Assembly: GCA_016839585.1 (NCBI GenBank)
Contig: JAEOTZ010000018.1
Span: 64,948-128,947, forward strand
From: Promethearchaeota archaeon
Lineage (GTDB): Archaea > Asgardarchaeota > Lokiarchaeia > Sigyniarchaeales > SOKP01
DNA: 64,000 nt
Direction: 5' to 3'
The notes below the pieces were generated by a model. The model was not told the origin of the DNA. It made no database searches and was given only the letters and a program-made list of their open reading frames with translations. The translations under genes were made by a program, and so were the position numbers. Below are positions 2,766 through 63,456 of the stretch, piece by piece. How positions within the stretch are numbered: the first letter of the stretch is position 1; each line of letters starts with the position of its first letter.

Positions 2766-2921
2766 TTCCTTTTTTAATTCTTTCTTAAGTCTATTAATAA
2801 GTTAAAAAATTTAAATATCTGAATAATTAGTATTATTTTTTTAATAATTAAAAATTTTCAAATTTGGATTTGAATAAGTCTTAAATCAAAATAAAAAGAA
2901 AAAAAATTAAATTTTATCGGG

Positions 2922-9769: not shown

Positions 9770-10480
9770 ATGGATGATATAAGAAAAGATAAAGTAATAA
9801 GAACTCGACTTAGGATAATTTATTTGCTATCTTTTATTTTTAGCTTAGTAGGGGCGATACTTCTATTTGCTGAGGATTTTCTAGAATGGTATACTGATAA
9901 CCCTTTTCCTGAACTTGATGAGTATGGCTATATACATCTTGATGATGAAGTTTATGGTGGACTTATACTCATGTTAGCACTCTTTTTAATAGTTTGTATG
10001 ATTATTAGTATTCTTGGAATTTATAATCCCAAGTTCATGAACATAGGGATTTTAGCTCTTGGGGAGATTTTTGCCATTATTGTATTTCTTATGGCAATAA
10101 TTGGAATCGCAATTGCGGCTGGTGATTTGGAGGATAAATCCTCTTGGAATCCAGATGCAGGTTTTTATGGGGCATTATTAGGAGGTTTACTTACTTGTAT
10201 ATTCTTTTCTATTAGTATTTGGGGCTCAATAAAGATCAAAAAACACAAACCCATACAAAAAGTAGCTCCAGAAAGAATTGCCCCAAAAGGAGTAGTTTCA
10301 GAGATGAGCTATTGTACTTATTGTGGTAAACCAGTATCTGGACTATTTTGTACCTATTGTGGTTCAGATTTGAGAAAAATTCAAGAAGATATAGCAGTTC
10401 CAGAGATAAAGCATTGTCCTAAATGTGATAAACCAGCATCTGGACAATTTTGTACCTATTGTGGAACAAAAATGTTCTAA
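9770..10480 (+). CDS. 4-TM membrane protein with two C-terminal double zinc-ribbon units
   Basis: Hydrophobic helices, then CTYCG..FCTYCG and CPKCD..FCTYCG. Confidence 0.8.
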   Translation: MDDIRKDKVIRTRLRIIYLLSFIFSLVGAILLFAEDFLEWYTDNPFPELDEYGYIHLDDEVYGGLILMLALFLIVCMIISILGIYNPKFMNIGILALGEIFAIIVFLMAIIGIAIAAGDLEDKSSWNPDAGFYGALLGGLLTCIFFSISIWGSIKIKKHKPIQKVAPERIAPKGVVSEMSYCTYCGKPVSGLFCTYCGSDLRKIQEDIAVPEIKHCPKCDKPASGQFCTYCGTKMF

Positions 10481-21568: not shown

Positions 21569-23068
21569 TTGAAAAATTATGATGTAATCTTCATTCATCC
21601 ACCTAGATTATTACAACCTGATTATGGTAAAAATATTAAATTTAGACGAGGTTCATTTATTTTCATCCCAATGGGTGTTTTTGCTATTGCTGATTTCCTT
21701 GAGAGAGAGGGTTTTGGAGTTAGAATAATAAATTATCCTTTAGAGCAATATTTAAATTATGATTGGAAATTAGAGGATTTCCTTAAGAATATTAATTTTG
21801 ATGTATGTGCAATAGATTTACATTGGATACATAATGCACATGGAGCTATTGAAGTTGCTAAAATCGTAAAAGATGTAAATCCAAATGCAAAAGTGGTGCT
21901 TGGAGGTTTTAGTGCTTCATATTACCATGATCAAATTTTAAAATATTATGAAGAAATTGATGGAGTAATTAGAGGAGAAGGAGAAATTCCACTTTTAAAA
22001 TATGTTCAAAATATTTATAAAAATCGATCTTTAGATTCCAATCCCAATTTATCTTATCGAGATCACTCTAAACAGATAAAAGTAAACTCTCTTTCCTACA
22101 CAGCAAAAACTTTGGACAATTTGAATTTTACAAATGTATCTCTCCTGAAAAATGCAAAACAATATTTTCAGTATAGTAGAAAGCTTATGGGGATCTCTTT
22201 CAATCTTCCCATTGGAAGAGGTTGTCCATTTAATTGTCCTTTTTGTGCGGGAGGACAGAGAGCTCAAAAAAGTTTGGTTGGCCGAGATAACGTCGTTCTT
22301 AGAAGTCCAGAAAAAGTTATAGAAGATATCAACGAAATTTTCTATAAATATAAAGTTCCAAGTATCTTTTTTGGACATGGTACCTACCCTGCAAATATAA
22401 AATATTGGAAAAAACTATTTAGGTTGATTCAAAAAGAAAAACTCGATATTAGTGGAGATTTAGAGATATGGAGGCTACCATTTCCTAAAGAGATGTGGGA
22501 AATATTTTATAAGACTTTCAATAGCAGTTATTCATCAATTAGTATTTCACCTCGAACAATGTCAACTAAAGTTCATAAAAAAATCGCTAAAATTTGTGAT
22601 CCGACATTTAAATTTCCTGAAAGCCAAATTAATGATTTAATAAAAAATGCGAATTTATACCAAATAATATTACGAATTTGGTTAACAATTGGTTTTCCAT
22701 TCCAAACTCGGTTTGATATTCTTAAGGATTTTACCTTTGCGATGAAATGTCTTTTAAAATATGGAAAATCCAATCTTAAGCCAATTACAATTATGAGCGA
22801 ACCATATCACATCTTCCCCGGTTCTCCTGCCCATGAATCTCCTGAGAGCTTCGGAATAAAATTAAAATATCATTCTTTTCCAGAGGTTGCTGAAGCTTTT
22901 AAACGAGCTAAAATATCTTTTTTTTATAATGTAATAAATTATGATACGGAATATTTATCTCAAGTTTCTATTCGTAATTTTAATTTGTTATTATCTTTAA
23001 GCACTGCGCTCATGTTTTTAACAACGGGTTCGAAATATCCTAACGTGAGCGAAAAATCCAAAATTTAA
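21569..23068 (+). CDS. Cobalamin-binding radical SAM protein
   Basis: B12-binding N-domain (P.G...IA, VVLGG..AS, RGEGE); GRGCPFNCPFC CxxxCxxC. Confidence 0.88.
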   Translation: MKNYDVIFIHPPRLLQPDYGKNIKFRRGSFIFIPMGVFAIADFLEREGFGVRIINYPLEQYLNYDWKLEDFLKNINFDVCAIDLHWIHNAHGAIEVAKIVKDVNPNAKVVLGGFSASYYHDQILKYYEEIDGVIRGEGEIPLLKYVQNIYKNRSLDSNPNLSYRDHSKQIKVNSLSYTAKTLDNLNFTNVSLLKNAKQYFQYSRKLMGISFNLPIGRGCPFNCPFCAGGQRAQKSLVGRDNVVLRSPEKVIEDINEIFYKYKVPSIFFGHGTYPANIKYWKKLFRLIQKEKLDISGDLEIWRLPFPKEMWEIFYKTFNSSYSSISISPRTMSTKVHKKIAKICDPTFKFPESQINDLIKNANLYQIILRIWLTIGFPFQTRFDILKDFTFAMKCLLKYGKSNLKPITIMSEPYHIFPGSPAHESPESFGIKLKYHSFPEVAEAFKRAKISFFYNVINYDTEYLSQVSIRNFNLLLSLSTALMFLTTGSKYPNVSEKSKI

Positions 23069-23146: not shown

Positions 23147-24406
23147 TTATATTAATCTCATAAATCTTCGAATTTGTGATTGAATGAGAAGTAATTGAAT
23201 GTTTCTTGCACCCCCAATAACCTCCTCAATTTTACTTACATCCGTCAATTCATCTATTGGAGTATTATCTGTTACTGAAACTCCACCACAGTGTTGTTGA
23301 ACTTCATAACAGATATCATGTGTTAGTTTAGATACATAATACTTACCTTGAGAAGATATTGAAGCAACCCATTTTTCAGCTTCTTTTGAAGGCTTTTCTG
23401 CAAATAGGATTTGATCATCATAAATTGTGGCTGCTTGTAAGGCTAATGATGTTGCTGCTGTAGCTTTAGTTAATAAATCTGCTAATCCATATCCTACTCC
23501 CTGGTATCTAATTACAGGCTTACCAAACTGTTGTCTTAAGTTAGTATAAATTATACCATTAATTAATCCACTCCAACAGATACCTATCCCTGAACCCATA
23601 ATACTTAAACGCTCTGGAACTAAGCCTTCAAACAATCTTACATATCCAAGTCCGTTATCCGCTAATACATATTCCATTGGAACTTTAACATTATCTAATA
23701 TTGTATGTGCAATATGAACTCGAGGAACAGAATTAATCTTCAAACGTTCAGTTTTTACACCGAACTTGCTGGCGATCATTCCTTGAACCATAGTATCTCT
23801 AGGATTTGCTTCATCATAAACTCCATAGCAACAAAAATAATCTGCGCTAGGGCCATTTGTTGTAAATACTTTTTCTCCATTAAAAATGACGCCATCATCT
23901 GTTTTTGTACAAATTGTAGTCAAGTTTACAGCATCAGAACCTCTTTCAGGTTCGGTTATCCCAATACAACCAACTTTTTGTCCAGATAGTAATTCATCTT
24001 GTACTTTATATATTGTATCTCCCGTACCTCCATAATGATAATAGTGAAAGGTGGGGTTCGCACATAGAATCCCACTTGCAACTCGCCCTAATTCTAATTG
24101 AGGGTCTAAAAAAGAAATATGAGTACCTAATAGAATTTCTTTTTTCATTCCATACGGTTTAAAATCCTTCCACTCATTAATTCTTTGCATATATCCTTTT
24201 TTCCCTAATTCAGGAAATAGAACATACACATCTTTGGACTTATCTATTTTTGGTTGTAAATCTATACAAAATTGTTGTAACTCTATACAATATTCCCGTT
24301 CTTCTTCATTTAACATAGGAAAAACATTGTCATTAAAGATTTTGAAGATATTTTCTAACGACATTTTTGCAAGAATTTCATCATTGATTATTTTCTCTTG
24401 AAACAT
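23147..24406 (-). CDS. Acyl-CoA dehydrogenase
   Basis: ITEPERGSDA, NGEKVFTTNG, RQQFGKPV..YQ, QQHCGG, IGGARNIQ. Confidence 0.92.
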   Translation of the reverse strand: MFQEKIINDEILAKMSLENIFKIFNDNVFPMLNEEEREYCIELQQFCIDLQPKIDKSKDVYVLFPELGKKGYMQRINEWKDFKPYGMKKEILLGTHISFLDPQLELGRVASGILCANPTFHYYHYGGTGDTIYKVQDELLSGQKVGCIGITEPERGSDAVNLTTICTKTDDGVIFNGEKVFTTNGPSADYFCCYGVYDEANPRDTMVQGMIASKFGVKTERLKINSVPRVHIAHTILDNVKVPMEYVLADNGLGYVRLFEGLVPERLSIMGSGIGICWSGLINGIIYTNLRQQFGKPVIRYQGVGYGLADLLTKATAATSLALQAATIYDDQILFAEKPSKEAEKWVASISSQGKYYVSKLTHDICYEVQQHCGGVSVTDNTPIDELTDVSKIEEVIGGARNIQLLLIQSQIRRFMRLI

Positions 24407-35970: not shown

Positions 35971-36543
35971 TTAATCAGCCAATTTTGACTGATACGTTAG
36001 ATCTGCAATTTTTTGAAAAATAGTTGTGACGCCCTGTCCTGTTAACGCAGAAGTTTCAAAAAAAGGAGCACTTAATTTTTCACTTAAATGATCAGCCATA
36101 GGATGGATAATTTTTCTCTCATCTTTTAGATCTATTTTGTTACCAACTAAAATACGAGGAATCCCACTAAGACCGTATCGAACTGCTGAATTATACCAGT
36201 TGTTTACATTAGAAAATGAACTTGAACGTGTAATATCATAAACAAGTATCATACCATCTGCTCCATTAAAATATGGGCGATGTAACATGTAGAACTGTGG
36301 TTGTCCGGCGATATCCCAGAACATGAGAAATACATCAACATCAGTTCCTTTTTCATCAACTACATTAAGTTTTGCTTTCAAAATGTTTACGCCAACGGTG
36401 GGTATATATTCTCCTTTAATTTGTTTACCTAGAAATTTGTCAAGGAGGGACGTTTTACCTACTGCAGGGTCTCCAATGACAATTATTTTATAGACTAATT
36501 CATCTCGAGTTGTGAAAATGAGTCCTTCTCTTTCTTCAGTCAT
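35971..36543 (-). CDS. Rab-like small GTPase
   Basis: GDPAVGKT, PTVG, WDIAGQ, GNKID, ETSA; no C-terminal prenylation Cys. Confidence 0.93.
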   Translation of the reverse strand: MTEEREGLIFTTRDELVYKIIVIGDPAVGKTSLLDKFLGKQIKGEYIPTVGVNILKAKLNVVDEKGTDVDVFLMFWDIAGQPQFYMLHRPYFNGADGMILVYDITRSSSFSNVNNWYNSAVRYGLSGIPRILVGNKIDLKDERKIIHPMADHLSEKLSAPFFETSALTGQGVTTIFQKIADLTYQSKLAD

Positions 36544-44567: not shown

Positions 44568-46256
44568 ATGGAATTGCCAGATTATATCAAAAATCGATAT
44601 TGGAAGGAGTACTTGCCCCCTGGAATCACATTAGAAATAAATATACCTGAGGATATTTCTTTAGTTGATATTTTTGAAAAGGGTGCTAAAGAGTATGGTG
44701 ATAATATAGCTCTGGATTATTATGGAAGAGAATTTACGTTTAAAGAAATGGACAGTTTAACAAGACGATTTGCCAGTGCCTTATTGAAGTTAGGTCTAAA
44801 GAAAGGAGATATTGTCGCTCTATGGTTGCCAAATTGCCCACACTTTAGCATTTGTTATTTTGCTACATTAAGTCTCGGTGCAACCTTAACAGCTATTAGT
44901 CCCTTGTTCGTTGCGAGAGAAATGGCTTATCAAATAAAGGATTCATGTGCTAAATTTCTAATAATGATTGATAGATTTTTTCCTCAATATAATCGAACTA
45001 AAGATGAGTTACCATTAGAAAAAGTAATTCTTGTTAATGTTGAAGGTAAAACTCCCGATATTCCTGAAGATGACAAAATTATCCATTTTAATACCATAAT
45101 GGATCAAAATCCTGAACCAATCACAGATTTTAAAATTGATATTAATCCTAAAGAATATATAGCTGTTATTCAATATACAGGGGGAACAACAGGGCTACCT
45201 AAAGGAGCAATGCTTACGCATTATAATATTATTGCAAATATTTATCAAATGAAACAAATTTCCGATTATATGAGAGATGTTTATCTTAAAGAAAATTTCA
45301 TAACTCTTTCTGTGCTTCCATGGTATCATATTTATGGGCAAACATGTGAACTTGCCCAAGGTCCTTTACTTGGTTCAAAAGGAATAATAATGGCTACATT
45401 CGATATCCCCAAAATCCTTGAAGTAATACAGAAGCACAAACCAAATTTAATGCTTGGAGTACCAACCATGTTTATAAATCTTCTAAATTATCCCCAGAGT
45501 AAAGATATAGATTTTTCTTGTTTAAAATATGCAAATGTTGGAGCCGGAGCTTTACCTACAGAATTATTTAAAGCGTGGGAAAAAAAGACAGGTTTTGCTT
45601 TGGGAGAAGGCTATGGGCTATCAGAAACAAGTCCAACAGTCACAAATTCTCCACCGTGGGCAAGAAAAAAAATTGGAAGTTGCGGTCATCCAGTAGCAAA
45701 TACTTTGGTTGGAATTATAAATGAAAACTTGGAGTTTTTGCCTGTTGGAGAAGCAGGAGAATTAGTAGTTAGTGGTCCACAGGTAATGCTAGGATATCAT
45801 AATCGCCCAGAAGAGAATAAGAAAGTCTTTTTTGAAGCGGGGGGATATAGTTGGCTTCGAACAGGAGATTTTGCAAAATTAGATGAAGAAGGATATATCT
45901 TTTTACTCGATCGTATTAAGGATATGATAAAATACAAGGGTCACAGCGTATATCCAAGAGAAATTGAGGAGATTCTATATGAACATCCAGCTATTTTGGA
46001 ATGTGGCATAGTTGGAGTGCCAGATCCAGTAAAAGGAGAAGAGATATTAGCTCATATTATACTTAAGCCTGAATATAGAAGTAAAGTCAGTGAACAAGAA
46101 ATTATTGATTGGGCAAAAGAAAATATGGCAACATATAAATATCCTAGAATTGTGAAATTTGTGAACAGTTTGCCTAAAAGTGCTGTTGGAAAAGTATTAA
46201 GACGAGTTATTAGAGAGAAAGAGGCTAAAAAAACGGAAAAAAAGAGAAAAAAGTAG
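44568..46256 (+). CDS. Long-chain-fatty-acid--CoA ligase (FadD-like)
   Basis: YTGGTTGLPKG, EGYGLSE, GEL...GPQVMLGY, RTGD, DRIKDMI, PKSAVGK. Confidence 0.93.
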   Translation: MELPDYIKNRYWKEYLPPGITLEINIPEDISLVDIFEKGAKEYGDNIALDYYGREFTFKEMDSLTRRFASALLKLGLKKGDIVALWLPNCPHFSICYFATLSLGATLTAISPLFVAREMAYQIKDSCAKFLIMIDRFFPQYNRTKDELPLEKVILVNVEGKTPDIPEDDKIIHFNTIMDQNPEPITDFKIDINPKEYIAVIQYTGGTTGLPKGAMLTHYNIIANIYQMKQISDYMRDVYLKENFITLSVLPWYHIYGQTCELAQGPLLGSKGIIMATFDIPKILEVIQKHKPNLMLGVPTMFINLLNYPQSKDIDFSCLKYANVGAGALPTELFKAWEKKTGFALGEGYGLSETSPTVTNSPPWARKKIGSCGHPVANTLVGIINENLEFLPVGEAGELVVSGPQVMLGYHNRPEENKKVFFEAGGYSWLRTGDFAKLDEEGYIFLLDRIKDMIKYKGHSVYPREIEEILYEHPAILECGIVGVPDPVKGEEILAHIILKPEYRSKVSEQEIIDWAKENMATYKYPRIVKFVNSLPKSAVGKVLRRVIREKEAKKTEKKRKK

Positions 46257-46436
46257 AGTCATAATTGAATATTTTTTTATTATAAATAAGTGAAAATTTT
46301 TATACACTATAAAAAATTATTATTTAAGCAAGGACATCAATAATATATTTATATTTCAGTTGAGATTAATAAGATAAGAGATTTTCAAATAAGGAATAAG
46401 AACTTTTTATAAGAAGCATTTAAATTATTGTTATAA

Positions 46437-48815
46437 TTGAAGGCTAGAACTTTGAATGAGAGAATAACAAAATTGCGCAGTGAAAGTCGTAAAGCAATTC
46501 CCTATGTCTCATTAGAAAGAGCTTTATTAATAACAGAATTTTATAAAACTGGTGCCGCTCATAAATTTTCCCTACCAGTAGCTAGAGCTAAAGCATTTAA
46601 ATACATTATAGAAAATAAGAAAATTTGCATTAATGAAGGAGAATTAATTGTTGGTGAACGCGGGCCTGAACCTAAAGCAACATCCACTTATCCTGAAGTT
46701 TGCTGTCATAGTTTAGAAGATTTGGAAATATTACATAATCGAGAAAAAATTTCTTTTAAAATATCTGAAGATGTAATACAAAATCAAAAAGAAATAATAA
46801 TTACATTTTGGAAAGGAAGATCAATTCGCGATAAAATTTTTTCCCAAGTTGATAAAGAATGGAAAGATGCGTATGAATCCGGTATATTTACAGAATTTAT
46901 GGAACAAAGAGCTCCCGGACATACGGTTGCAGGAAAGAACATATGGAAAAAAGGATTTTTAAATTTTAAAAAAGAGATAGAATTTAGTATCAAAAACTTA
47001 GACTTTTACAATGATCCTGATGCTTTGAATAAGAGAGAACAATTGAGAGCGATGGATATTGCAGCAGATGCAATTATAATTCTGGCAAAACGTTATGCTC
47101 AAGAAGCTTTAAATTTAGCAAAAAAGCAAAGTGATCCGATTAGAAAAAAGGAATTAGAAAAGATCGCTGAAATTTGTTCTTATGTGCCCGCACATGCACC
47201 CAGAACGTTTTGGGAAGCGCTCCAGCATTATTGGTTTATTCATCTTGGAGTTATAATTGAATTTAACACTTGGGATTCTTTCAATCCTGGACGTTTAGAC
47301 CAAAATTTATATCCTTTCTTTAAAAAAGATAAAGCTGAAGGAATTTTAACTCAAGAAAAAGTTATTGAACTTCTTCAAGCTTTTTGGGTAAAATTTAATA
47401 ACCAACCAGCACCCCCTAAGGTTGGTGTAACAGCTGAAGAAAGCAACACCTATACTGATTTCTGCAATATAAATATAGGAGGATTAAAAGAAGATGGAAC
47501 TAATGGTGTTAATGAACTCTCCTATATACTTCTGGATGTAATTGAAGAAATGAGAATACTTCAACCAAGTAGTAATGTTCAAGTTAGTAAAAAGACACCA
47601 GATGAGTTTTTAAAACGAACAATCAAGATTGTTAAAACTGGCTTTGGTCAACCCTCAATTTTTAATACAGATGCGATTATACAAGAATTAACTAAACAAG
47701 GAAAAGCATTAATTGATGCTCGTAATGGGGGAGCTAGTGGTTGCGTAGAAGTAGGGGCTTTTGGGAAAGAAGCATATATTTTAACAGGATATTTTAATCT
47801 TGTAAAAATTCTAGAAATCACTCTAAATAATGGAAAAGATCCAATAAGAGGCAAAGAAATTGGATTAAAGACGGGAGATCCTACTACATTTAAAACTTTT
47901 GATGATTTAATGGAAGCATATACAAAACAGATTAACTATTTTGTTGATATTAAAATTAAAGGAAACCAAATTATAGAACGACTTTGGGCTAAACTTCCAG
48001 CTGTTTTTATGTCAATCATCATTGAAGATTGTATTCAGAATGGAGAAGATTATAATGATGGAGGAGCAAAATACAATACTTCTTATATCCAAATCGTCGG
48101 GACGGGTAGCATAACCGATTGCTTAACTTCTATTAAATATAATGTTTATAATAAAAAACTTATTACAATGGAAGAAATGCTAAAAGCGCTTGAGAAGAAC
48201 TTCAATGAATTTGAGGTTATAAGGCAAAAATTGATATATAGGACTCCAAAATATGGTAATGATGAAGATTATGCTGATAATATCACTAAACAGGTATTCG
48301 AAATTGTTTATAATGCAATTGATGGGCGCCCAAATACTCGAGGTGGAGTACATAGGATAAATTTATTACCTACAACAGTACATATTTATTTTGGAAAAGT
48401 AACAGGGGCGACCCCTGACGGCAGAAAAGCATATTATCCATTATCTGAAGGAATTTCACCAGTACAAGGAATGGATGTTAAAGGGCCTACAGCAGTAATA
48501 AAATCTGCTGGAAAAATTGATCATCTCCGAACAGGAGGAACTTTATTGAATCAGAAATTTGCCCCAAAATTTTTCTCAAGTGATTCTGGTATAAATAATA
48601 TAGTTCATTTAATACGTACATATTTTGAAATGAATGGGCATCATATACAATTCAATGTTGTTTCGGCTGATACTCTACAAGCTGCCCAAAAAAATCCAGA
48701 ACAATATCATAATTTAATTGTGCGTGTAGCAGGTTATAGTGACTACTTTGTTAATTTAGGTGAAGACTTACAAGATGAGATAATTAGAAGAACGGAACAT
48801 ATATCATACTATTAA
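46437..48815 (+). CDS. hypD: Glycyl radical enzyme, trans-4-hydroxy-L-proline dehydratase type
   Basis: TYPEVCCH, FTEFMEQRAPGHTV, FNNQPAPPKVG..AEESNTYTDF, SGCVE Cys loop and RVAGYS Gly loop match my recollection of clostridial HypD. Confidence 0.82.
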   Translation: MKARTLNERITKLRSESRKAIPYVSLERALLITEFYKTGAAHKFSLPVARAKAFKYIIENKKICINEGELIVGERGPEPKATSTYPEVCCHSLEDLEILHNREKISFKISEDVIQNQKEIIITFWKGRSIRDKIFSQVDKEWKDAYESGIFTEFMEQRAPGHTVAGKNIWKKGFLNFKKEIEFSIKNLDFYNDPDALNKREQLRAMDIAADAIIILAKRYAQEALNLAKKQSDPIRKKELEKIAEICSYVPAHAPRTFWEALQHYWFIHLGVIIEFNTWDSFNPGRLDQNLYPFFKKDKAEGILTQEKVIELLQAFWVKFNNQPAPPKVGVTAEESNTYTDFCNINIGGLKEDGTNGVNELSYILLDVIEEMRILQPSSNVQVSKKTPDEFLKRTIKIVKTGFGQPSIFNTDAIIQELTKQGKALIDARNGGASGCVEVGAFGKEAYILTGYFNLVKILEITLNNGKDPIRGKEIGLKTGDPTTFKTFDDLMEAYTKQINYFVDIKIKGNQIIERLWAKLPAVFMSIIIEDCIQNGEDYNDGGAKYNTSYIQIVGTGSITDCLTSIKYNVYNKKLITMEEMLKALEKNFNEFEVIRQKLIYRTPKYGNDEDYADNITKQVFEIVYNAIDGRPNTRGGVHRINLLPTTVHIYFGKVTGATPDGRKAYYPLSEGISPVQGMDVKGPTAVIKSAGKIDHLRTGGTLLNQKFAPKFFSSDSGINNIVHLIRTYFEMNGHHIQFNVVSADTLQAAQKNPEQYHNLIVRVAGYSDYFVNLGEDLQDEIIRRTEHISYY

Positions 48816-50361: not shown

Positions 50362-50598
50362 ATAATTAGAATTTCAAGTAGTTTATTTTAAATAATAAAA
50401 AAAAAGTTTGGAATAGAATAATTATTCACATTATTAGAATTAATGAAAATCTAACAAATGCGTATCCAAAAACATTTCTGAAAATAATTTCCTGTTTCAT
50501 TTTTATAAGTGTAAATTCTAGTGGAATGGAAAGAGTTAAATAGTCGATTAAAAAAAAGTAACTTAGTAAAATTATTCATCTTTAAGGATGTAAATAAT

Positions 50599-52050
50599 AT
50601 GAAATCTGAAAAAAAGAATATGACATTCTTAATTACATTACTCTTTGGACTAATTTTATTTAATCTCTATATTTGCATTTGCGGTAAACCAGGAACTTCA
50701 AATGAAATCTTGAATAAAATATATGATTTAAATATAAAAAATTCAGCATGGAATTGGACTAATACTGTAGTTGTTTCTACAACCGGTCTTCCTTCAGAAC
50801 ATCCCGATATCGCTGTTGATATAGAAGGGAATGTTCACATAACATGGCAAGAAAATAATGACATATATTATAGATATTATGATATCACCACATCTAATTG
50901 GAGTATAACTGAATTGGTTTCTACAGAAACAACGGCTACTGCACAATTACCAAGTATAGGAGTTGATAAAGAATTACGTGTCCACATTATATGGTATGAT
51001 AATACAAATTATATGGGGGCGGGGACTGATATGGACGTCTTCTACAAATGTAAAGAGATAAATAAAACATGGACAACAACTGAGGTGGTTTCTACAGAAA
51101 GTACAATGAATTTATATAGCATGCCAAAACTCGCGGTAGGTCCAGATAGTACCATTCACGTAGTATGGAACGAAGATAGGGGTGGGTCAGATTGGGATAT
51201 TTTATATAAGAAGAAACCTCCTGGTGGTACTTGGATAGGATTTGAAGAAGTATGCAATGCTACAGTAGGATTATCATACCGACCAGACATATTCGTAGAT
51301 GCAGAGGGGTCTGTTCACGTGGTCTGGTTAGATGATAGGAATTTCTATAATGCAGGTGGGGACTGGGATATTTTTTATAGGTATTGGGATGTTGAAACCA
51401 ATAATTGGATGATGATTGAGGTGGTTTCTACAGAAAGTACTAGTGATTCGTTTGTTCCAAGTGTTGCGGTAGATGGAGAAGGCTCAGCGCATGTGGTATG
51501 GTTTGATTTAACAGATCTCGGCTGTGGTACTGATCAGGATATTTTTTACAAATATCGGAATGCTATTACGAGTAATTGGACAGTCACCGAGGTATTAACT
51601 CAAGGATTCGATGGTGGAGCATTCCATCCTGTAATTACTACAGATGTTTTGGATAATCTTCATGTGGCTTGGCACGACACGACTAATTACAATGGATCTG
51701 GTAGTGATTTTGATATTATTTATAGACGTTGGAATAATACATTAGGTATTTGGATGGCTCCAGAGGTAGTATCTACTGGAAGTTCAGTAATTTCAAGGCG
51801 TCCTAATATTGCTGTAGATAATATAATAAATGTTCACATCGTATGGCAGGATACAATGGATTATGACGGGGCAGGTACAGATTGGGATATTTTCTATCAA
51901 AGTAATTTCGTTGAGTCGGGCCCCTCTCCATCAAAAAAAGGTTTTGTTATCCCAGGTCCTGATTTATTTTTACTTGGATTTGTAATATTATTCACTGCAA
52001 TATATATAATTAAAACTCTTATTTCAAATAAAAAATTATATCCAAAATAA
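50599..52050 (+). CDS. Secreted 7-bladed beta-propeller surface protein with IPG-TM-basic sorting tail; probable ATG at 50599
   Basis: Signal-like N-terminus, seven repeats P.IAVD..G.VHVVW.D...GAG.D.DIFY...W...EVVST, and C-terminal IPG + TM + KK. Confidence 0.85.
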   Translation: MKSEKKNMTFLITLLFGLILFNLYICICGKPGTSNEILNKIYDLNIKNSAWNWTNTVVVSTTGLPSEHPDIAVDIEGNVHITWQENNDIYYRYYDITTSNWSITELVSTETTATAQLPSIGVDKELRVHIIWYDNTNYMGAGTDMDVFYKCKEINKTWTTTEVVSTESTMNLYSMPKLAVGPDSTIHVVWNEDRGGSDWDILYKKKPPGGTWIGFEEVCNATVGLSYRPDIFVDAEGSVHVVWLDDRNFYNAGGDWDIFYRYWDVETNNWMMIEVVSTESTSDSFVPSVAVDGEGSAHVVWFDLTDLGCGTDQDIFYKYRNAITSNWTVTEVLTQGFDGGAFHPVITTDVLDNLHVAWHDTTNYNGSGSDFDIIYRRWNNTLGIWMAPEVVSTGSSVISRRPNIAVDNIINVHIVWQDTMDYDGAGTDWDIFYQSNFVESGPSPSKKGFVIPGPDLFLLGFVILFTAIYIIKTLISNKKLYPK

Positions 52051-55136: not shown

Positions 55137-55925
55137 ATGAATAATGGGAATCAATTGTTAAATAAACTTAGAGCAGGATCTCTTCGTGGAATCATTTTTG
55201 ATTTCGATGGAACTATACTCGATGTTAGAGAACCTCTTGAAAAGTCAATAAATGAAGTCTTTACTTATTATAAGGTTGATGTTGATATGGATACTACGTT
55301 TCAAGAGATAGGCGCATTGTTAGAAACCATTCAAGGTTATCCACTCCCTAAAGTCTTATTAGAGTCTTTTGAGATATTTAAACATATTACTGCACTTGAA
55401 GGATTAACCTATTTCAAGCAATTGAGAATTGCAATCAAAACTTTCTCTAAATATTTAGAATACTCTAAAGATGCTACCTTATATCCAGGAGTAAAACCTA
55501 TATTGAAAAAATTTAAAAAATTTAGTGATCTTTATATTGTATCCCATAATAAAACAGAGACTATTATGAATCACTTAGAGAATGAAGGAATAGACAAATT
55601 CTTTAAAGGCGTGTATGGGAGTGATAAAATTCCCGTTCAGAAACCAGATCCAATGGCACTTCAACCACCTATTGAAAATTATGAAACACGAAAGAGAAAT
55701 GAATTTTTAATGATTGGCGATATGCCATCAGATATAATTGCTGGTCGAGAAGCTGGTTTTTGGACTATTGGAATTTCAAGTGGGGTAAGCAAAAAAGAGA
55801 TTCTGGCTGAACAAAGACCAGATTTATTAATTAATTCATTAGATGATTTATTAAAATTAGTTGAGAAAAAAACAATATCAGAATCGAATATTCAAAAATC
55901 TATAAAGATAAAATCAGAGGAGTAA
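55137..55925 (+). CDS. HAD-superfamily phosphatase (Gph-like)
   Basis: FDFDGT, VSH, KPDP, IGDMPSDI.AG; stop is 6 nt before the acyltransferase. Confidence 0.9.
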   Translation: MNNGNQLLNKLRAGSLRGIIFDFDGTILDVREPLEKSINEVFTYYKVDVDMDTTFQEIGALLETIQGYPLPKVLLESFEIFKHITALEGLTYFKQLRIAIKTFSKYLEYSKDATLYPGVKPILKKFKKFSDLYIVSHNKTETIMNHLENEGIDKFFKGVYGSDKIPVQKPDPMALQPPIENYETRKRNEFLMIGDMPSDIIAGREAGFWTIGISSGVSKKEILAEQRPDLLINSLDDLLKLVEKKTISESNIQKSIKIKSEE

Positions 55926-55931
55926 AAATTT

Positions 55932-57596
55932 ATGCAACTTGAAAAGAAAGGATATCAACTAGCAGAAGAGCTTGAACGAAAGAAATCCACTGAACAGAAG
56001 ATGCAAGAAGAGCTCAAGTACCAAAAACGTCATCAAGATTGGACATATAAAATTCTTAAATTTAACCCAATCGACCCTTTGAATGACCTTTATCGGTACA
56101 TCATCAAAAGGCTAGATTTGAAGAAAATTGAAGGACGACTCCAATGGTGGGCTGCGTATATTTATATAAAACAAGCTGCCCGTATGTTCTGGAACTTCAA
56201 AACGGAATATCCGAAGGGGAACATGTTTCCAGAATATGGTCCGGGCATTCTCGTCGCCAATCACGAGTCACACATCGATCCCTTCTTCTATGGGGCCGCT
56301 TGTCATCGCAGGATTCGCTACATGAGTAAGTTGGACAATTTTAAGACCCCTATAGTAAGAACACTCTTCAATAATCTTGGAGCTTTCAAAGTAGACCGTG
56401 ATAATCCCGATCGGGCATGGGAAAAAGCAAAGGAGATTATCCGAGGAGGAGAATGGGTTGGTATATTTCCTGAAGGTACTCGTAGTACTGAAGAAAATGG
56501 ATTTGCGTTAGGAGAATTCAAAACTGGTGCTGTTAGGCTGGCGATTGAAATGGATGTACCAATCGTTCCGATGGCTGTAGTTGGTTCAAGGAATGCCTTA
56601 TCTAAAGGTAAACTAGTTATGAAACCAACTCAAGTAATTGTAAGAGTAGGAGATCCAATTAATTATCATGATTATGATATTAATATGGTATCATATGAAG
56701 ATATAAGAAGGTTAACTGATGAGTTAAGAACCGTAGTCTTTGAGCTACGTGAAGGTATTTATGGGAAAAAAGAGGAAGAACTTTCAATAGGTTCACTTGA
56801 AGATGTTGAGAAAGAGCCAAAATTCAATTTTAAGACTTACTTAAAAGATGTGGGAAAGGGAGTATTACAACTCATAGATGATTCATGGTATGCTCTTTTA
56901 AAGAGTTTAGAAGCATTTGGAGTTCGCGACCAGTTTCAAAAGACGGTACAATGTTTCTCAGGAGATTTAGTTTGTAGTTGGTCTGACCTTATGATGCCGT
57001 ATAAAGTAATCGACTTTGAAAAATACATCCCACAAGAAGGTGCTGCGCTTATATGTCCAAGTCATAATTCAGAATGGGATGTACTTATACTGGCTGCAAG
57101 TATGATACATCATCCACCAAGGCGAGTTATGTACCAGATGGCAAAACAATCGCTTTTTAAAATACCACTCGTTAACGCCTGGGTAAGAAATCATCATGCA
57201 TTTCCCTTAAAACGGGGAGAACATGATGTAGATTCTTACAACTATGCAAGGAATCTTCTTGAGCAGGGGGAGGTAGTTTGTACTTATCCCGAAGGAACAA
57301 CTAATCTTGGAGGTGGTGAACTTTTAGAAGGTCACACTGGTCCCATACGGTTAGCAATAGAAACACAAGTCCCAATTATCCCAATTGGTATAACTGGGAC
57401 AGAAACTACATATCCTAAGCATGCGAAAATGCTGAAATTTTATAAGGGTCAAATATTAAAAGCAGGACCACCATTTATGGAGCATCAACAATATTGGGGT
57501 AAGCCAATGCCGGATTATGATGAGCTTAAACGATTAACTGACAACATGATGGATCAGATCCGTGATTTACTTGTATACGATGCCCCTGATACGTGA
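55932..57596 (+). CDS. Tandem two-domain PlsC/LPLAT glycerolipid acyltransferase
   Basis: Domain 1: NHESHID, FKVDR, FPEGTRS, FKTGA..VPIVP. Domain 2: SHNSEWD, FPLKR, YPEGTT, HTGP..VPIIP. Confidence 0.9.
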   Translation: MQLEKKGYQLAEELERKKSTEQKMQEELKYQKRHQDWTYKILKFNPIDPLNDLYRYIIKRLDLKKIEGRLQWWAAYIYIKQAARMFWNFKTEYPKGNMFPEYGPGILVANHESHIDPFFYGAACHRRIRYMSKLDNFKTPIVRTLFNNLGAFKVDRDNPDRAWEKAKEIIRGGEWVGIFPEGTRSTEENGFALGEFKTGAVRLAIEMDVPIVPMAVVGSRNALSKGKLVMKPTQVIVRVGDPINYHDYDINMVSYEDIRRLTDELRTVVFELREGIYGKKEEELSIGSLEDVEKEPKFNFKTYLKDVGKGVLQLIDDSWYALLKSLEAFGVRDQFQKTVQCFSGDLVCSWSDLMMPYKVIDFEKYIPQEGAALICPSHNSEWDVLILAASMIHHPPRRVMYQMAKQSLFKIPLVNAWVRNHHAFPLKRGEHDVDSYNYARNLLEQGEVVCTYPEGTTNLGGGELLEGHTGPIRLAIETQVPIIPIGITGTETTYPKHAKMLKFYKGQILKAGPPFMEHQQYWGKPMPDYDELKRLTDNMMDQIRDLLVYDAPDT

Positions 57597-57617: not shown

Positions 57618-58685
57618 ATGGACCCACAGGTAGCAGAAAGTAAGAAAAAAATAAAAGTTGGAATACCAAGAGCGCTTCACTTTTATAGGTATTATCCTTT
57701 TTGGAAAAAGCTACTTGAAGAATTAGATGTAGAAATCGTATTGAGCCCTCCTACTAATAAAAAAATTGTTGAAGAAGGGGTTACTCATGGATTTGGAGAG
57801 CTATGCATCCCAGTAAAAATTTATTATGGACAAGTATTAAAATTAATCAGAGATCATCCAGATTTAGACTATCTTTTTGTTCCTCGATATGTAGCAGAAG
57901 TAAAAGAGGCTTATTTCTGTCCTAAATTTATATCACTTCCGGATATTATTAAAATCTTGCCTGGAGTGCCTAAAATTTTAAATTTTGAGGTTAATGTGAA
58001 AGAATTTCCTATTGCAACTTCAGTTATTGAACTTGGAAAAGAATTAGGTAAAACACAGGATCAATCATTAAAAGCTTATAGAGAGGCTCAAAAGTATTTT
58101 GATGAATATCACAAATTCCTAAGGCAAGGTGGTTCAGTTAATCATGCATTGCGATTAGTTCAGAGAAACATTCCTTTTAAATTACCTAAGAAGAAAAGCA
58201 AGGGAGATATAAAGTTCTTACTCTTGGGTCATGCATATAATATTTTTGATACTTTTATTAATTTAGATTTTCAAAAGAAATTAGTAGATCAAGGAGTTGA
58301 AGTTTTAACTATTGAAAATCTACCAGAATTTATTTTTAAAGAGCCAGTAATAGTGAATCCTAAAGGGGGTGGCCTACGAAATTACTGGAAACATGAAGAA
58401 GAAATTATGCAAGCAATTAGATACTTTCTTACCAAAGGGCGAGATGAAATTGATGGTGTTATTTTCCTTGTAAGTTTTGCTTGCGGACCTGATAGCCTAA
58501 TTTCAGAACTAATCATGCGGGATATGAAAGTCGTTGGACTTCCTTTTTTGGAGATTACAATGGATGAGCATAGTGGTGAAGCAGGTTTACTTACGAGAGT
58601 AGAAAGTTTTGTTGAAATGGTACGACGTAAAAAGAAGAAATTGGAGATTGATTCAAAAAAGACTACAGTTATAAAAACATTATAA
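57618..58685 (+). CDS. Stand-alone DUF2229 (acyl-CoA dehydratase activase-related, Fe-S reductase module)
   Basis: VGIPRAL, LCIPVK..YG, YFCPK, LGHAYN..D..IN, FACGPD, DEHSGEAG..TRVESF. Confidence 0.85.
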   Translation: MDPQVAESKKKIKVGIPRALHFYRYYPFWKKLLEELDVEIVLSPPTNKKIVEEGVTHGFGELCIPVKIYYGQVLKLIRDHPDLDYLFVPRYVAEVKEAYFCPKFISLPDIIKILPGVPKILNFEVNVKEFPIATSVIELGKELGKTQDQSLKAYREAQKYFDEYHKFLRQGGSVNHALRLVQRNIPFKLPKKKSKGDIKFLLLGHAYNIFDTFINLDFQKKLVDQGVEVLTIENLPEFIFKEPVIVNPKGGGLRNYWKHEEEIMQAIRYFLTKGRDEIDGVIFLVSFACGPDSLISELIMRDMKVVGLPFLEITMDEHSGEAGLLTRVESFVEMVRRKKKKLEIDSKKTTVIKTL

Positions 58686-59070: not shown

Positions 59071-62028
59071 ATGTTAAACAAGAGTCTTCATAGATTGAAT
59101 ATACAAAAACCTCAATATTTTGAGGGTTTAGAAATTGGAGCTGTTTCTGTAAAATGGGTTTGTAGAACAGAAAATGGAGAAATATTAAGTGAAGTTGTAC
59201 GCCACGAAGGCTCTCCAAGAGAGAAGATAAAAAAGATTTTTGCTCGGTATAATGTAGATAATCATTCAAAAATTGTAATAACTGGTCAAGCCACCAAGAG
59301 TTTTCTTAATTTACCATACATTTCAGAAATAGAATGTCTTGAAAAGGCTTTAGCGTTCTATAATTTAAAACCGGATATTCTACTTTCACTTGGTGGAGAA
59401 ACTTTTAGCATATACCCTATGAAAAGTGGTATAATAAAAAATATTATTTCAACTTCAAAATGTGCTGCTGGTACAGGTGAATTCATTGTCCAACAACTTC
59501 AAAGAATGGGATTAACTGTTGAACAAGGAATTGAAGCCAGTATAACAGGTAATTTCACTCAATTAGCAACAAGATGTTCTGTTCATTGCAAATCTGATGC
59601 TACTCATAAACTCAATAAAGGAGAGTGTAAAAGGGAAGATATAGTAAAAACTTTAATTTATGACTTAGCAAGAAAAGTTAGTGAAATGATTGAGTCTGCA
59701 CAATGGCCTACACGATTAATTGTAATATCGGGAGGAGTTGCTTTAAATAAAATTTTTATTCAGAATTTATCTGAATTTCTAGGTGATACAGAAATAAAAT
59801 TATTACCAGAAAGTCCTTATCTCGAAGTATTTGGAGCATCATTATTCGCATCTGAGTTGCAAGAATCCCCCTTCCTCCACGATGACTGGTTTAAATCATC
59901 GAAAGTTGAGTTTCCAATCCTCAGACCACTTAAAGAAGCAGAACCTCTTCTGGATTACCGAGTTAACACAGAATCTAAAACAAAAATAAAACTTGGAGAA
60001 AAATATATACTTAGTATAGATGCGGGTTCTACTACTACTAAAGCTGTACTATTTAATGTTTCTGATGATTCAATAGGTGCAAGTGTTTATTTAAGAACTT
60101 TGGGCAATCCTGTTTTAGCTACTAAACAATGTATCAATGAACTCATGAAACAGGTAGGTAATAATACTATAAAAGTAATTCAATGTGGGGTAACAGGTTC
60201 TGCTAGAGAAATGGTATCCGTTTATTTAGATAATTGTCGAAGTTTTAATGAGATACTAACACATGCAAGAGCGGCTACCAACGAGCTTCCAAATGTAGAT
60301 ACTGTATTTGAAATTGGTGGGCAGGATTCAAAATTTATCTCATTTTTAAAAGGCGTACCAATTGATTATGCGATGAATGAAGGATGCTCTGCTGGGACTG
60401 GCAGTTTTCTGGAGGAATCTGCATCAGTAGACATGGGTATAGCTGTAGAGGAAATTAGTGATATAGCGACAAAAAGTACTCACCCAATAGCATTTGGTGA
60501 ACGGTGTGCTGCTTTTATCAATACTGATTTAAGAAATGCTCTTCAACAAGGAGCAAATCCTGATAATGTGGTAGCTGGCTTGGTTTATTCAATTGCAGAT
60601 AATTATATTTCACGTATTGTTGGATCACGTCAAATAGGAGAGAATCTTCTATTCCTTGGAGGAGTTGCTCTAAATAAATCAGTTGCTTTAGCTATAGCTG
60701 CTCGTTCACATCAAAAAGTTGTAGTACCGGCGCATCCTGAACTTATGGGAGCCGTGGGTACAGCTCTTATGACACGTGATCTTTTACAAAATGATATTAT
60801 ATCTGAAACAAATTACATGCTCAAGAAACTTACGAGAGGAGAAATACAAATTAAAAATACTTTTAGATGTAAGGCATGTGAAAATAATTGTGAAATTCAA
60901 AGAATTTCAATAAGAGGGAAAATTTATCCCTTTGGAGGATTATGCTCAAAATATAAATTATTACGCCAAAAAGGTACCAAAGTAAAAGAAGGTCAAGATC
61001 TTGTAGAATTAAGGAATAAAATGATGATTGATGAATATAGAAGTCGATCTTTAAAAAATCCTCGTGGCACAATAGGATTACCTATGGCATTAACTTCTCA
61101 TGTTCTTTTCCCTTTATACACAAAATTTATCAATGAGCTTGGTTATGATGTCGTATTATCAAATCCTTCAAAAATTGGTAATACCAAAACGAAAGCACCT
61201 ATATGTTATCCTTGTGAATTAGTTCATGGAGCGGTAAATGATCTTTTAAATCGCGATGTTGATTACATTTTCTTACCTCATGTCATTGAAATGGAAATTT
61301 CAAGAGGTTTTATTCATGGTTATACGTGTCCTTCTACAACAACTATTCCAGACATCATCCGCGCAGCCTTTGAGAATGTAAGCGATAAAATATTATCACC
61401 TCATATTGGTCTCTCAGAAGACCTTATTGATACAACTTTAACGGAGTTTGGAAGAATTGCTTGTTTGTTAGGATTAGAAAATAAAGAGGGTATTAATGCG
61501 GGATTGATAGCTATATCTCGTTATAAGATGTTCAGAGAAAGATATTACGAATTTGGTAGAAGAAAATTAAAGGATCTCTTGAACAAACCATCAGTAATTA
61601 TCGCTGGAAGACCTTATGTTATTTATCCTGCAGATGTTAACATAGCACTCCCTCGCAAAATAGTTAGCAGAGGATATAATGCTATTCCCTCTGATTTATT
61701 ACCATTTTTAAATAATGAAGCAACACACACAAGAAATGTATGGAGCTTTACTCAAGAGATCAATAATGCCATTCAATATGTAAAAAAGTATCCCAATTTA
61801 TACCTCTGTTTTGTTTCTTGCTTTTCATGTGGTCCTGATGGAACTATGTATCATCACTTTCGTCAACAACTTGAGGGGCACACGTTTTGTTATCTTGAAA
61901 TAGATTCTCATACAGCCCACGCTGGTTTTGAAACGAGAGTAGGCGCTTTTTTAGATATTATTGAAGAACGCCATCGTAATGCAAAGAAAAATGTGAAAAG
62001 TTTATTAAATCAAGGTATAACTATCTAA
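59071..62028 (+). CDS. PlsA/Ger-like protein: two BcrAD/BadFG activase domains plus DUF2229
   Basis: Act1: KCAAGTG, RCSVHC. Act2: IDAGSTTTK, EIGGQDSK, MNEGCSAGTG, RCAAF. Linker: CKACENNC..GGLC. Red1: CYPC, YTCP, GRPY, FSCGPD, EIDSH. Confidence 0.85.
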   Translation: MLNKSLHRLNIQKPQYFEGLEIGAVSVKWVCRTENGEILSEVVRHEGSPREKIKKIFARYNVDNHSKIVITGQATKSFLNLPYISEIECLEKALAFYNLKPDILLSLGGETFSIYPMKSGIIKNIISTSKCAAGTGEFIVQQLQRMGLTVEQGIEASITGNFTQLATRCSVHCKSDATHKLNKGECKREDIVKTLIYDLARKVSEMIESAQWPTRLIVISGGVALNKIFIQNLSEFLGDTEIKLLPESPYLEVFGASLFASELQESPFLHDDWFKSSKVEFPILRPLKEAEPLLDYRVNTESKTKIKLGEKYILSIDAGSTTTKAVLFNVSDDSIGASVYLRTLGNPVLATKQCINELMKQVGNNTIKVIQCGVTGSAREMVSVYLDNCRSFNEILTHARAATNELPNVDTVFEIGGQDSKFISFLKGVPIDYAMNEGCSAGTGSFLEESASVDMGIAVEEISDIATKSTHPIAFGERCAAFINTDLRNALQQGANPDNVVAGLVYSIADNYISRIVGSRQIGENLLFLGGVALNKSVALAIAARSHQKVVVPAHPELMGAVGTALMTRDLLQNDIISETNYMLKKLTRGEIQIKNTFRCKACENNCEIQRISIRGKIYPFGGLCSKYKLLRQKGTKVKEGQDLVELRNKMMIDEYRSRSLKNPRGTIGLPMALTSHVLFPLYTKFINELGYDVVLSNPSKIGNTKTKAPICYPCELVHGAVNDLLNRDVDYIFLPHVIEMEISRGFIHGYTCPSTTTIPDIIRAAFENVSDKILSPHIGLSEDLIDTTLTEFGRIACLLGLENKEGINAGLIAISRYKMFRERYYEFGRRKLKDLLNKPSVIIAGRPYVIYPADVNIALPRKIVSRGYNAIPSDLLPFLNNEATHTRNVWSFTQEINNAIQYVKKYPNLYLCFVSCFSCGPDGTMYHHFRQQLEGHTFCYLEIDSHTAHAGFETRVGAFLDIIEERHRNAKKNVKSLLNQGITI

Positions 62029-62031
62029 AAA

Positions 62032-63456
62032 ATGACCGAAATAGAACAATCAAAAAATAAAGAATTATTTAAGACAAATAAAGTCAAACAGGCTCGATTT
62101 TCTGATGATTATAAATACATCATTGATAGCGAGGGTCAGAAAGTTGAACTTGACGATTCTAGGATTGTATTTGTAGATCCTGAACCCCGAAATTCCTATG
62201 GAAGACGGCTTGTAATAAATTTATTCAAAAAATATAACCGTAACTTTAGGATTAGTAAAGAGACTGATGCATCTATTTTACAATATTCAAAAAAAATATG
62301 CTCTGGAAGAGAATGTCTTGCAAGTGTTGCTATTGCAGGGGCAGTCTTAAAGGATATACATGAATATAGAGATACAAATGAAATCACTATCTATCGGACT
62401 CCAATAGATCAACACGGTCCATGCCAGAATGGGGCATGGCCAGTTCTTTGGGAGACATTTGCGAAAAGACTAAATATGAAAAATGCAATTTTTTGCGCTT
62501 TTCCTAAATATTCTAACAATTATTTAGGGTTGAATCGCGATTTAATAGCATGGGAAAATTTAAATTTTGTCATAGGACAATATCTTATCGAAGCAAGAAA
62601 TGCTTTGCAATGCGTTGCTGAAAAAAAAAATATAGCTTTGGATAAATTTGAAGAATTAACAAGTGATTTTATTGATAATGTAAAAGAAGGAAAGAAAACA
62701 TTGAACACCGGTTTAGTAAAATGGGCAAAAGAAGTTGCGCAAATACCTCTCAAAGCTAAAATTAAAGAAATCCCCAAAGTATTAATTTTTGGAGGATTAA
62801 ATTTAATGTTTGATCATTATCCTATAGAAGATTTTTTTCTTGAAAGGGGAATTATTACGAAAGTTGTAGATATAGTTGAATCAATGAGCCTAATTTTAGC
62901 CGAAAGTACTATAAGATATGTATTCAAAAAAGGATTTATCACTCCAAAAGAGCAATTTAATGAACAACTACTCGATCCTACTGATTTAGATGAAAATGAT
63001 AGAAAAGAAGCTCTAAGAGCAAAAAGAAGTAGAAATGCTTTAAAATTCTTAGATTCACAATGTAAAATTTTCAGAAAAATTATGGGAAAATCAGGATTAT
63101 TGTTTGATTCATATATAGATTTTATTGATCTCCTTAATGAAGGAAATAAATATGTCTCTTCAAATAGTCTTAGTGAAACTCCAGTAATAACTGGGAGATT
63201 TTTACATTCAATTAAAGAAGGTATTTACGATGGCTTAATTAATTTAGGGACATTTAATTGTCAACCTGCAATGAACTCTCAGGCTATTATTCGTCCATTA
63301 GCTAATAAGTGCGATATTCCATACGCAGCAATAGATTGTGAAGGACCGTGGATATCAACAAATCAACGCAGACTTCTTGAAACAATTGCTGTGCAAGCTA
63401 AAAGATTACGCAAAAAGAAGAATGAGAAAACAATACAGGTATATTCACAAGTCTAA
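62032..63456 (+). CDS. PlsR-like Fe-S reductase/dehydratase-type subunit
   Basis: CSGRECL, GPCQNG.W, G.FNCQP; starts 3 nt after the PlsA-like stop. Confidence 0.75.
   Translation: MTEIEQSKNKELFKTNKVKQARFSDDYKYIIDSEGQKVELDDSRIVFVDPEPRNSYGRRLVINLFKKYNRNFRISKETDASILQYSKKICSGRECLASVAIAGAVLKDIHEYRDTNEITIYRTPIDQHGPCQNGAWPVLWETFAKRLNMKNAIFCAFPKYSNNYLGLNRDLIAWENLNFVIGQYLIEARNALQCVAEKKNIALDKFEELTSDFIDNVKEGKKTLNTGLVKWAKEVAQIPLKAKIKEIPKVLIFGGLNLMFDHYPIEDFFLERGIITKVVDIVESMSLILAESTIRYVFKKGFITPKEQFNEQLLDPTDLDENDRKEALRAKRSRNALKFLDSQCKIFRKIMGKSGLLFDSYIDFIDLLNEGNKYVSSNSLSETPVITGRFLHSIKEGIYDGLINLGTFNCQPAMNSQAIIRPLANKCDIPYAAIDCEGPWISTNQRRLLETIAVQAKRLRKKKNEKTIQVYSQV

Follow-up and report, generated by a model that had tools for sequence, protein, structure and literature searches.

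A fused tandem PlsC-type acyltransferase of Lokiarchaeia and its conserved linkage to a PlsR/PlsA-like reductase cluster

The tandem acyltransferase gene and its cluster

We analyzed a 64,000-nucleotide (nt) stretch of DNA (hereafter the window) located on contig C90 of a Lokiarchaeial genome of 3.45 Mb (91 contigs, 99.2% complete). Its focal gene, an open reading frame (ORF) at 55932..57596 on the forward strand, encodes a 554-amino-acid (aa) tandem acyltransferase of the PlsC/AGPAT type (AGPAT, 1-acylglycerol-phosphate acyltransferase), which an earlier sequence-only reading had described as one polypeptide with two PlsC domains. Profile searches bear out that description. Pfam placed PF01553 on two stretches of the protein (E 3.4e-57), and a search of the same genome scored the two domains separately at 103.6 (E 1.7e-29) and 95.6 bits (E 5.0e-27), the cut-off being 23. 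The TIGR00530 AGP_acyltrn model likewise matched in two stretches with 160.9 bits (cut-off 102.95); the E. coli-type PlsC equivalog model NF011593 gave 59.8 bits, below its cut-off of 501, and the NCBIfam scan returned no match to a model specific for glycerol-3-phosphate acyltransferases (GPATs). Going beyond the earlier reading, the strongest clue to the role of this protein is that its gene heads a conserved cluster that also contains HAD phosphatase and PlsR/PlsA-type reductase genes.

Domain 1 (D1; residues ~45-299, 56064..56828, forward strand) is the type-1 half, a canonical domain resembling lysophosphatidic acid acyltransferases (LPAATs), and Domain 2 (D2; residues ~300-554, 56832..57593, forward strand) is a divergent, type-2 paralogue, with 31% identity between the halves (E 4e-22). 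Each carries a helix pair of its own, that of D1 at the N-terminus. In the AGPAT superfamily (also LPLAT, lysophospholipid acyltransferase), HxxxxD in motif I forms the catalytic dyad, and EGTR, Arg included, constitutes motif III. All four AGPAT motifs are present in each half, and the HxxxxD and PEGT blocks were found to differ between the halves exactly as had been read from the letters. D1 has NHESHID as motif I (residues 110-116, nt 56259-56279), GAFKVDR as motif II, FPEGTRS as motif III (residues 179-185, nt 56466-56486), and VPIVPMAV as motif IV. The corresponding blocks of D2 are SHNSEWD (residues 377-383, nt 57060-57080), HAFPLKR, YPEGTTN (residues 452-458, nt 57285-57305; core EGTTN), and VPIIPIGI. 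At least 120 homologues share 61-95% identity with the protein, and those with a named source come from Promethearchaeota, Lokiarchaeota, and other Asgard metagenome-assembled genomes (MAGs).

The tandem gene is flanked by further forward-strand genes. Its ATG start lies 6 nt past the stop of a gene (55137..55925) for a 262-aa HAD-IA family phosphatase (PF13419, E 3.7e-25; PF00702, E 1.8e-18), for which no NCBIfam equivalog was recovered at its cut-off. Starting 21 nt after the tandem gene, the next gene (57618..58685) encodes a 355-aa PlsR-like subunit that combines DUF2229 and HGD-D (PF09989, E 8.6e-46; PF06050, E 1.3e-6), followed at 59071..62028 by a gene for a 985-aa PlsA-like protein with two BcrAD_BadFG activase domains and a DUF2229 (PF01869 twice, E 1.5e-53; PF09989, E 2.4e-37; TIGR00241, E 2.4e-64). 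Behind it lies orf474 (62032..63456, 474 aa, forward strand), whose product is probably a divergent reductase-type partner of the PlsA-like protein, judging from distant matches. No Pfam family was detected in it at E <= 0.001, and at E <= 10 the only match was PF24232 DUF7445, below the cut-off (E 0.11). By BLASTP, it weakly matches the C-terminal end of the PlsR-like protein (E 0.005), and in the atlas feature search (0.92-0.93) the nearest clusters carried the automatic names '2-hydroxyglutaryl-CoA dehydratase activator family' or 'CoA activase'; DUF2229 occurs in 13% of the members of one such cluster. The succession of PlsA-like gene and orf474 recurs in 6 loci. The two genes stay together, at a spacing from the tandem gene that varies between loci, and resemble a second, paralogous reductase pair.

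Across 49 related loci, a HAD homologue precedes the tandem gene in 40, and a PlsR-like gene lies directly downstream in 41, equivalent to 41 of the 44 loci that can be judged; five of the remaining eight end too early, and three (L062, L064, and L065) are without the gene. The PlsA-like gene is loosely linked to the cluster, with an orthologue at most 8 kb downstream and at varying spacing in L020, L024, L030, L031, L039, L040, L044, and L050. In three other Lokiarchaeial families, PlsR-like orthologues with 42-47% identity stand in clusters in which one or more PlsC genes, in different fusion states and with or without a HAD gene, lead into PlsR-like, DUF2229, and activase genes; the HAD gene lies inside the cluster in two other families (L070 and L071). 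The full order was recovered at locus L063 of f1, the family to which the window belongs, and comprises HAD, tandem, PlsR-like, DUF2229, activase, a PlsC-like gene without the catalytic His, GNAT, and Ntn-hydrolase. In the window's own genome, the distal three cluster genes are found on contig C82 (locus L007, 192..3351), where they encode a 396-aa DUF2229 protein, a 343-aa BcrAD_BadFG activase, and a 230-aa His-less PF01553 protein, and the PlsA-like/orf474 pair occupies the place behind the PlsR-like gene instead. This second related locus, which starts right at the end of its contig, matches the distal half of the L063 cluster in gene order. Among 68 f1 genomes, which are kin and not independent samples and from which the own genome (G000) was excluded, the tandem gene and the PlsR orthologue occur together in 53, the tandem gene alone in 7, the PlsR orthologue alone in none, and neither in 8.

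Several loci showed further variation. At L065, the tandem gene and the His-less PlsC-like gene are separated by a 204-aa ORF (9777..10391) that matches Toxin-deaminase (PF14424, E 4.3e-8). Several f1 genomes (for example, G109:C38:80127-81158, G135:C98, and G183:C3) have a second PlsR-like paralogue (43-44% identity) within open frames of 807-846 aa; some of these frames contain one in-frame TGA, and the one in G109 is ~7 kb from the tandem gene. The Lokiarchaeial cluster also turned up, at 75-83% identity, in locus L033 (DATKTW010000084.1), whose contig bears the label 'Candidatus Nanopelagicaceae bacterium'; mis-binning is the likely cause.

Conservation, predicted structure and origin of the two domains

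To compare the two halves residue by residue, we aligned 116 full-length members of the family, whose identity to the query ranges from 46 to 95%, the lowest being P0121. In D1, H111, D116, R156, P210, and P213 are present in all 116 members, and E181, T183, and R184 in 115, the sole exception being a gap. In D2, the stretch HNSEWDV with the H378/D383 dyad is invariant, as are R428, E454, T456, T457, and N458 (116/116 each), and G455 is retained in 115. Mean column identity is 0.83 for D2 against 0.87 for D1, and the D2 motifs are as conserved as those of D1.

The AlphaFold2 model of the whole protein (predicted local distance difference test, pLDDT, 83.6; predicted template modelling score, pTM, 0.80) shows a long helix pair ahead of each domain. 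Modelled D1 (45..299) aligned with Thermotoga maritima PlsC (5kym_A) at a VIA Z of 19.9 and a root-mean-square deviation (rmsd) of 3.8 over 222 residues, and phmmer related D1 to 5KYM at E 1.8e-13. D2, folded alone with a pLDDT of 80.5, likewise found its best match in 5kym_A (VIA Z 18.8, rmsd 3.2, 200 residues aligned). The GPATs 1iuq, 1k30, and 8ia1 ranked second for both domains (Z 14.6-15.7, with plant GPATs at 15.6-15.7 for D2), and PatA and LpxM were more distant neighbours (Z 10-13). Since T. maritima PlsC is the best structural match of each, both domains are predicted to adopt PlsC-like folds, and structure does not separate GPAT from LPAAT. The assignment of D2 as a sugar acyltransferase of the PatA/LpxM type was weakened, as D2 alone scored Z 18.8 with PlsC and 12.6 with PatA. 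Because each domain keeps a His/Asp dyad and an amphipathic helix pair, the protein most likely has two active sites and sits peripherally (monotopically) on the membrane.

We built a domain tree (113 rows, quick search, LG+G4, support by the approximate likelihood-ratio test SH-aLRT only). It placed D1 and D2 in two separate old clades, D1 with gene 1 and D2 with gene 2 of the split forms, each with an SH-aLRT of 98. In four other, unrelated tandem PF01553 proteins in the same tree (P0148, P0154, P0219, and P0222), the halves are mutual sisters. As the Lokiarchaeial halves fall apart and join the respective split genes, the tandem protein is, on this tree, a fusion of two old, differentiated paralogues, and an origin by internal duplication was rejected.

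A scan of 1.84 billion representative proteins recovered P0121, 49% identical, as the only further tandem cluster of full length, along with separate single-domain relatives of each half, which, where named, derive from Promethearchaeota, Lokiarchaeota, or 'archaeon' MAGs. In a survey of 301 genomes of the phylum, only f1 had the fused form (60 of 68 genomes), apart from two stray partial matches elsewhere (G234 and G031). In the sister family f2, two separate neighbouring genes take the place of the fusion; the predicted complex of the split f2 pair (352 aa and 269 aa) scored 0.00 and counts neither way. Two further Lokiarchaeial families (L070 and L071; P0132) encode proteins of 872-876 aa with three PF01553 domains (for example, L070 4744..7362), in which domain 1 has HxxxxE, domain 2 has FPQQTT as motif III, and domain 3 is without the His; behind these triple fusions come HAD, PlsR-like, DUF2229, and activase genes. 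The third PlsC-like member of the system, represented by the 230-aa protein on C82 and by domain 3 of the triple fusions, has no catalytic His. By these motifs, a single canonical acyltransferase with divergent and in some cases dead paralogues at its side appears to be the general pattern, and the f1 tandem the state that preserves the second domain in full.

The gene had also been judged by eye to be more GC-rich than its neighbours, and this was confirmed: its G+C content is 39.2% against an ORF mean of 31.4% (standard deviation 3.9; rank 3 of 52), and at third codon positions (GC3) 31.0% against 20.5% (standard deviation 3.4; rank 1 of 52). The GC excess over the surroundings is repeated in 43 of 43 orthologous loci and is thus a property of the family; being family-wide, it is no sign of recent transfer, and recent horizontal transfer was rejected as its cause. 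In orthologous loci, the tandem gene is mostly raised in GC3 too, standing above the PlsR-like gene in 30 of 36. No Pfam family was found in the two other high-GC3 ORFs of the window.

Candidate function and competing explanations

The earlier remark that the window holds no plsB, plsX, or plsY extends to the whole genome, in which neither PlsY (PF02660) nor PlsX (PF02504) gave a single match and no acyl carrier protein (ACP)/PP-binding domain was found. Its PF01553 domains number three, namely D1, D2, and the one on C82. Geranylgeranylglyceryl phosphate synthase (GGGPS) is present (PF01884, E 9e-58), and the search for glycerol-1-phosphate dehydrogenase (G1PDH) and GpsA returned weak generic matches (Fe-ADH_2 up to 35.5 bits; the N-terminal domain of NAD_Gly3P_dh up to 30.4 bits). 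At least 18 tandem-bearing genomes, the own genome included, are explicitly listed as without PlsY, several of them 98-100% complete. Where PlsY-family genes do occur in f1, they lie within open frames of ~400 aa, often in arrays of 2-4 adjacent copies (for example, G171:C6:56828-62954, G077:C106, and G246:C69). Elsewhere in the window, the regions 1809..4109, 21569..23068, 23147..24406, and 44568..48815 encode enoyl-CoA hydratase, 3-hydroxyacyl-CoA dehydrogenase, acyl-CoA dehydrogenase, and an AMP-binding acyl-CoA synthetase, together with a PFL-like glycyl-radical enzyme and a B12-binding radical-SAM protein. The window also carries a Ras-family small GTPase typical of Asgard genomes (35971..36543) and a 509-aa repeat protein (50521..52050) whose C-terminus is hydrophobic and whose BNR/beta-propeller matches are weak.

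The PlsA, PlsR, and Ger reductases are described in PMC12838417, PMC8788747, and PMC13159169. PMC12838417 assigns PlsA/PlsR to the BCR/HAD family and describes two activation domains and two reduction domains, and a published supplement uses the architecture code 'BBDH'; PMC13159169 reports that the Ger enzyme of T. maritima turns sn-1 esters into ethers and that Lokiarchaeota have homologues of it. The domain kit of the Lokiarchaeial genes is alike: the 985-aa protein pairs two BcrAD_BadFG domains with a DUF2229, and the 355-aa protein a DUF2229 with an HGD-D, but here the reductase is split over two or three genes and linked to PlsC-type genes. A PF09989 control search found matches in T. 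maritima and Lactococcus lactis, which is consistent with PlsA/Ger kinship and proves nothing.

Our preferred reading, to which we give an even chance, is that the tandem protein is a conserved Lokiarchaeial fused acyltransferase, an acyl-CoA-dependent module that would feed a PlsA/PlsR/Ger-type ester-to-ether reductase. Acyl-CoA would be the acyl donor for both domains, which together would esterify a glycerol-phosphate-type backbone, D1 performing the step on lysophosphatidic acid (lyso-PA) or a similar acceptor and D2 carrying out the other one, perhaps on glycerol 3-phosphate or 1-phosphate or on a second acceptor. Next, the ATP-driven Fe-S reductase of the adjoining genes would turn an ester into an alk(en)yl ether, and a phosphate would be taken off by the HAD enzyme. 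Of this scheme, we infer the donor, the acceptors, the order of steps, and the ether link. In its favour are the invariant dyads of both domains, the closeness of each fold to T. maritima PlsC, the fusion history, the synteny and co-occurrence with the PlsR orthologue, the negative searches for PlsY, PlsX, and ACP in the own genome, and the AMP-binding acyl-CoA synthetase and beta-oxidation-type genes in the window. The related proposal of the sequence-only reading, GPAT plus LPAAT in one chain, stands in part: it is possible because the two differing domains both look intact and no other known first-step acyltransferase was found in this genome, and it is weakened by the absence of the motif-III Arg from D2 and the loss of the His in f2. 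Structurally, both domains are nearest to an LPAAT, T. maritima PlsC, with plant GPATs second (Z ~15).

A number of observations weigh against the preferred reading. The motif-III Arg is replaced by Thr in D2 of all 116 members, with EGT retained. In f2, the type-2 genes (3 of 3), like P0144, carry Phe where the catalytic His should stand, together with a degenerate motif III, and since the His is missing there, a second catalytic step would seem to be dispensable in the sister family. PlsY-family genes occur in 48 of 81 f1 genomes, and therefore PlsY could carry out the first acylation elsewhere in f1. The PlsR orthologue is missing from 7 of 60 tandem-bearing f1 genomes, and at L062, L064, and L065, with at least 4.8 kb of downstream sequence, the tandem gene is followed only by the His-less PlsC-like gene. 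The likeness of the reductase genes to PlsA/PlsR/Ger is one of domain architecture. On the literature side, the first lipid analysis of a cultured Lokiarchaeon, as reported in PMC13400652, found archaeal lipids only, by a method that could miss ester lipids, and Coleman 2019 judges a role of archaeal PlsC/PlsY in membrane synthesis unlikely.

The altered motif III of D2 and the His-to-Phe exchange in f2 also favour an alternative that we consider unlikely, in which D1 is the only working acyltransferase and D2 a non-catalytic or differently tasked partner (a scaffold, a substrate-presenting subunit, or a regulatory pseudo-enzyme) that keeps the dyad. The third PlsC-like protein of the cluster likewise has no His, and inactive paralogues may be normal in this system, given that both the f2 type-2 and the third PlsC-like members have lost that residue. 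Such a partner role is difficult to reconcile with the invariance of H378, D383, R428, E454, T456, T457, and N458 in 116 of 116 members across 46-95% identity, and the column identity of D2, close to that of D1, would be difficult to account for if the domain neither catalysed a reaction nor bound a ligand precisely.

The presence of GGGPS in a genome in which no PlsY or PlsX was found bears on the nature of the acceptor, which could instead be an archaeal lyso-type ether lipid such as geranylgeranylglyceryl phosphate (GGGP), yielding hybrid ether/ester lipids from which the reductase may make mixed isoprenoid/n-alkyl diethers. D1 is LPAAT-like, and GGGP would be a structural analogue of lyso-PA; the single active-looking domain of f2 suits an acceptor that already bears one chain, and the idea itself appears in PMC6737245. 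We nevertheless regard this option as quite improbable, for it leaves two catalytic-looking domains in f1 unexplained, and Ger is reported, in PMC13159169, to be sn-1 specific on bacterial diacyl lipids.

A role in making or remodelling lipids other than membrane phospholipids, which we think very unlikely, would have the cluster serve neutral storage lipids or alkyl-acyl-glycerol, the re-acylation of scavenged bacterial lysolipids, or a non-glycerol acceptor. Three PlsC-type domains and a phosphatase resemble the logic of GPAT, LPAAT, phosphatidic acid phosphatase, and diacylglycerol acyltransferase: the three domains co-travel, as triple fusions followed by HAD genes, the tandem gene followed by the 230-aa type-3 gene persists even without the reductase, and the HAD phosphatase is conserved in the cluster. 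The sugar acylators PatA and LpxM are among the structural neighbours of the domains, but PlsC and the GPATs outrank them for both. Moreover, the third domain is without the catalytic His, and no acceptor-forming genes, such as those for glycosyltransferases, were seen in the cluster.

Relation to known systems and significance

Both halves share the fold of T. maritima PlsC, with D1 keeping the four AGPAT motifs and its alignment taking in most of the N-terminal helical region of that enzyme. The Lokiarchaeial protein differs from it in having two domains per chain, in the EGTTN of D2 instead of EGTR, and in its host, an archaeon in whose genome no ACP, PlsX, or PlsY was found. OlsF, as presented in the SqdA preprint, also has more than one acyltransferase domain per chain and performs two successive acylations, but its domains come from different families, whereas the Lokiarchaeial halves are both PF01553. 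P0148, P0154, P0219, and P0222 are likewise multi-domain PF01553 proteins, but their halves are nearest to each other, as after internal duplication. Mycobacterial PlsM/PlsB2 offer a published precedent for acylation of glycerol 3-phosphate outside the classical PlsB/PlsY set and in a non-classical order; they are separate proteins and are compared here by role.

Earlier publications (PMC6737245, PMC6431249, and PMC13400652) already cover PlsC homologues of Lokiarchaeota and the proposal of chimeric ether/ester lipids, with PMC6737245 citing Villanueva 2017 for the hybrid lipids. In the literature covered, no description was found of the tandem architecture, the fusion history, or the acyltransferase-reductase linkage, with Data S1/Table S21 of PMC13159169 searched by names only. 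These three features go beyond the PlsC and Ger homologues already known from Lokiarchaeota. The domain architecture, the conservation of catalytic residues, the fusion history, the synteny, and the negative searches for PlsY, PlsX, and ACP are matters of observation. Extending the preferred reading, Lokiarchaeia might possess a self-contained pathway independent of PlsB, PlsY, and ACP, in which the tandem enzyme would build diacyl or acyl/isoprenyl glycerol phosphate from acyl-CoA and the linked reductase would make n-alk(en)yl ethers, a proposal that we put forward tentatively and hold to be somewhat unlikely.

How an archaeal host with isoprenoid ether lipids gave rise to eukaryotic membranes of bacterial-type fatty-acyl esters is a long-standing question, and Asgard PlsC-like and Ger-like genes have so far been reported as scattered homologues of doubtful function. 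The conserved, intact fusion, its class-wide phosphatase/reductase cluster, and its occurrence in genomes without PlsY (the own genome and at least 17 further f1 genomes) combine these into one concrete experimental target, to whose case it adds that neither PlsX nor ACP was found in the own genome; the target offers a testable route to fatty-acid-based lipids in Lokiarchaeia. If the self-contained pathway proposed above is real, close archaeal relatives of eukaryotes would make fatty-acid-derived glycerolipids beside isoprenoid ethers and would represent a living intermediate across the lipid divide.

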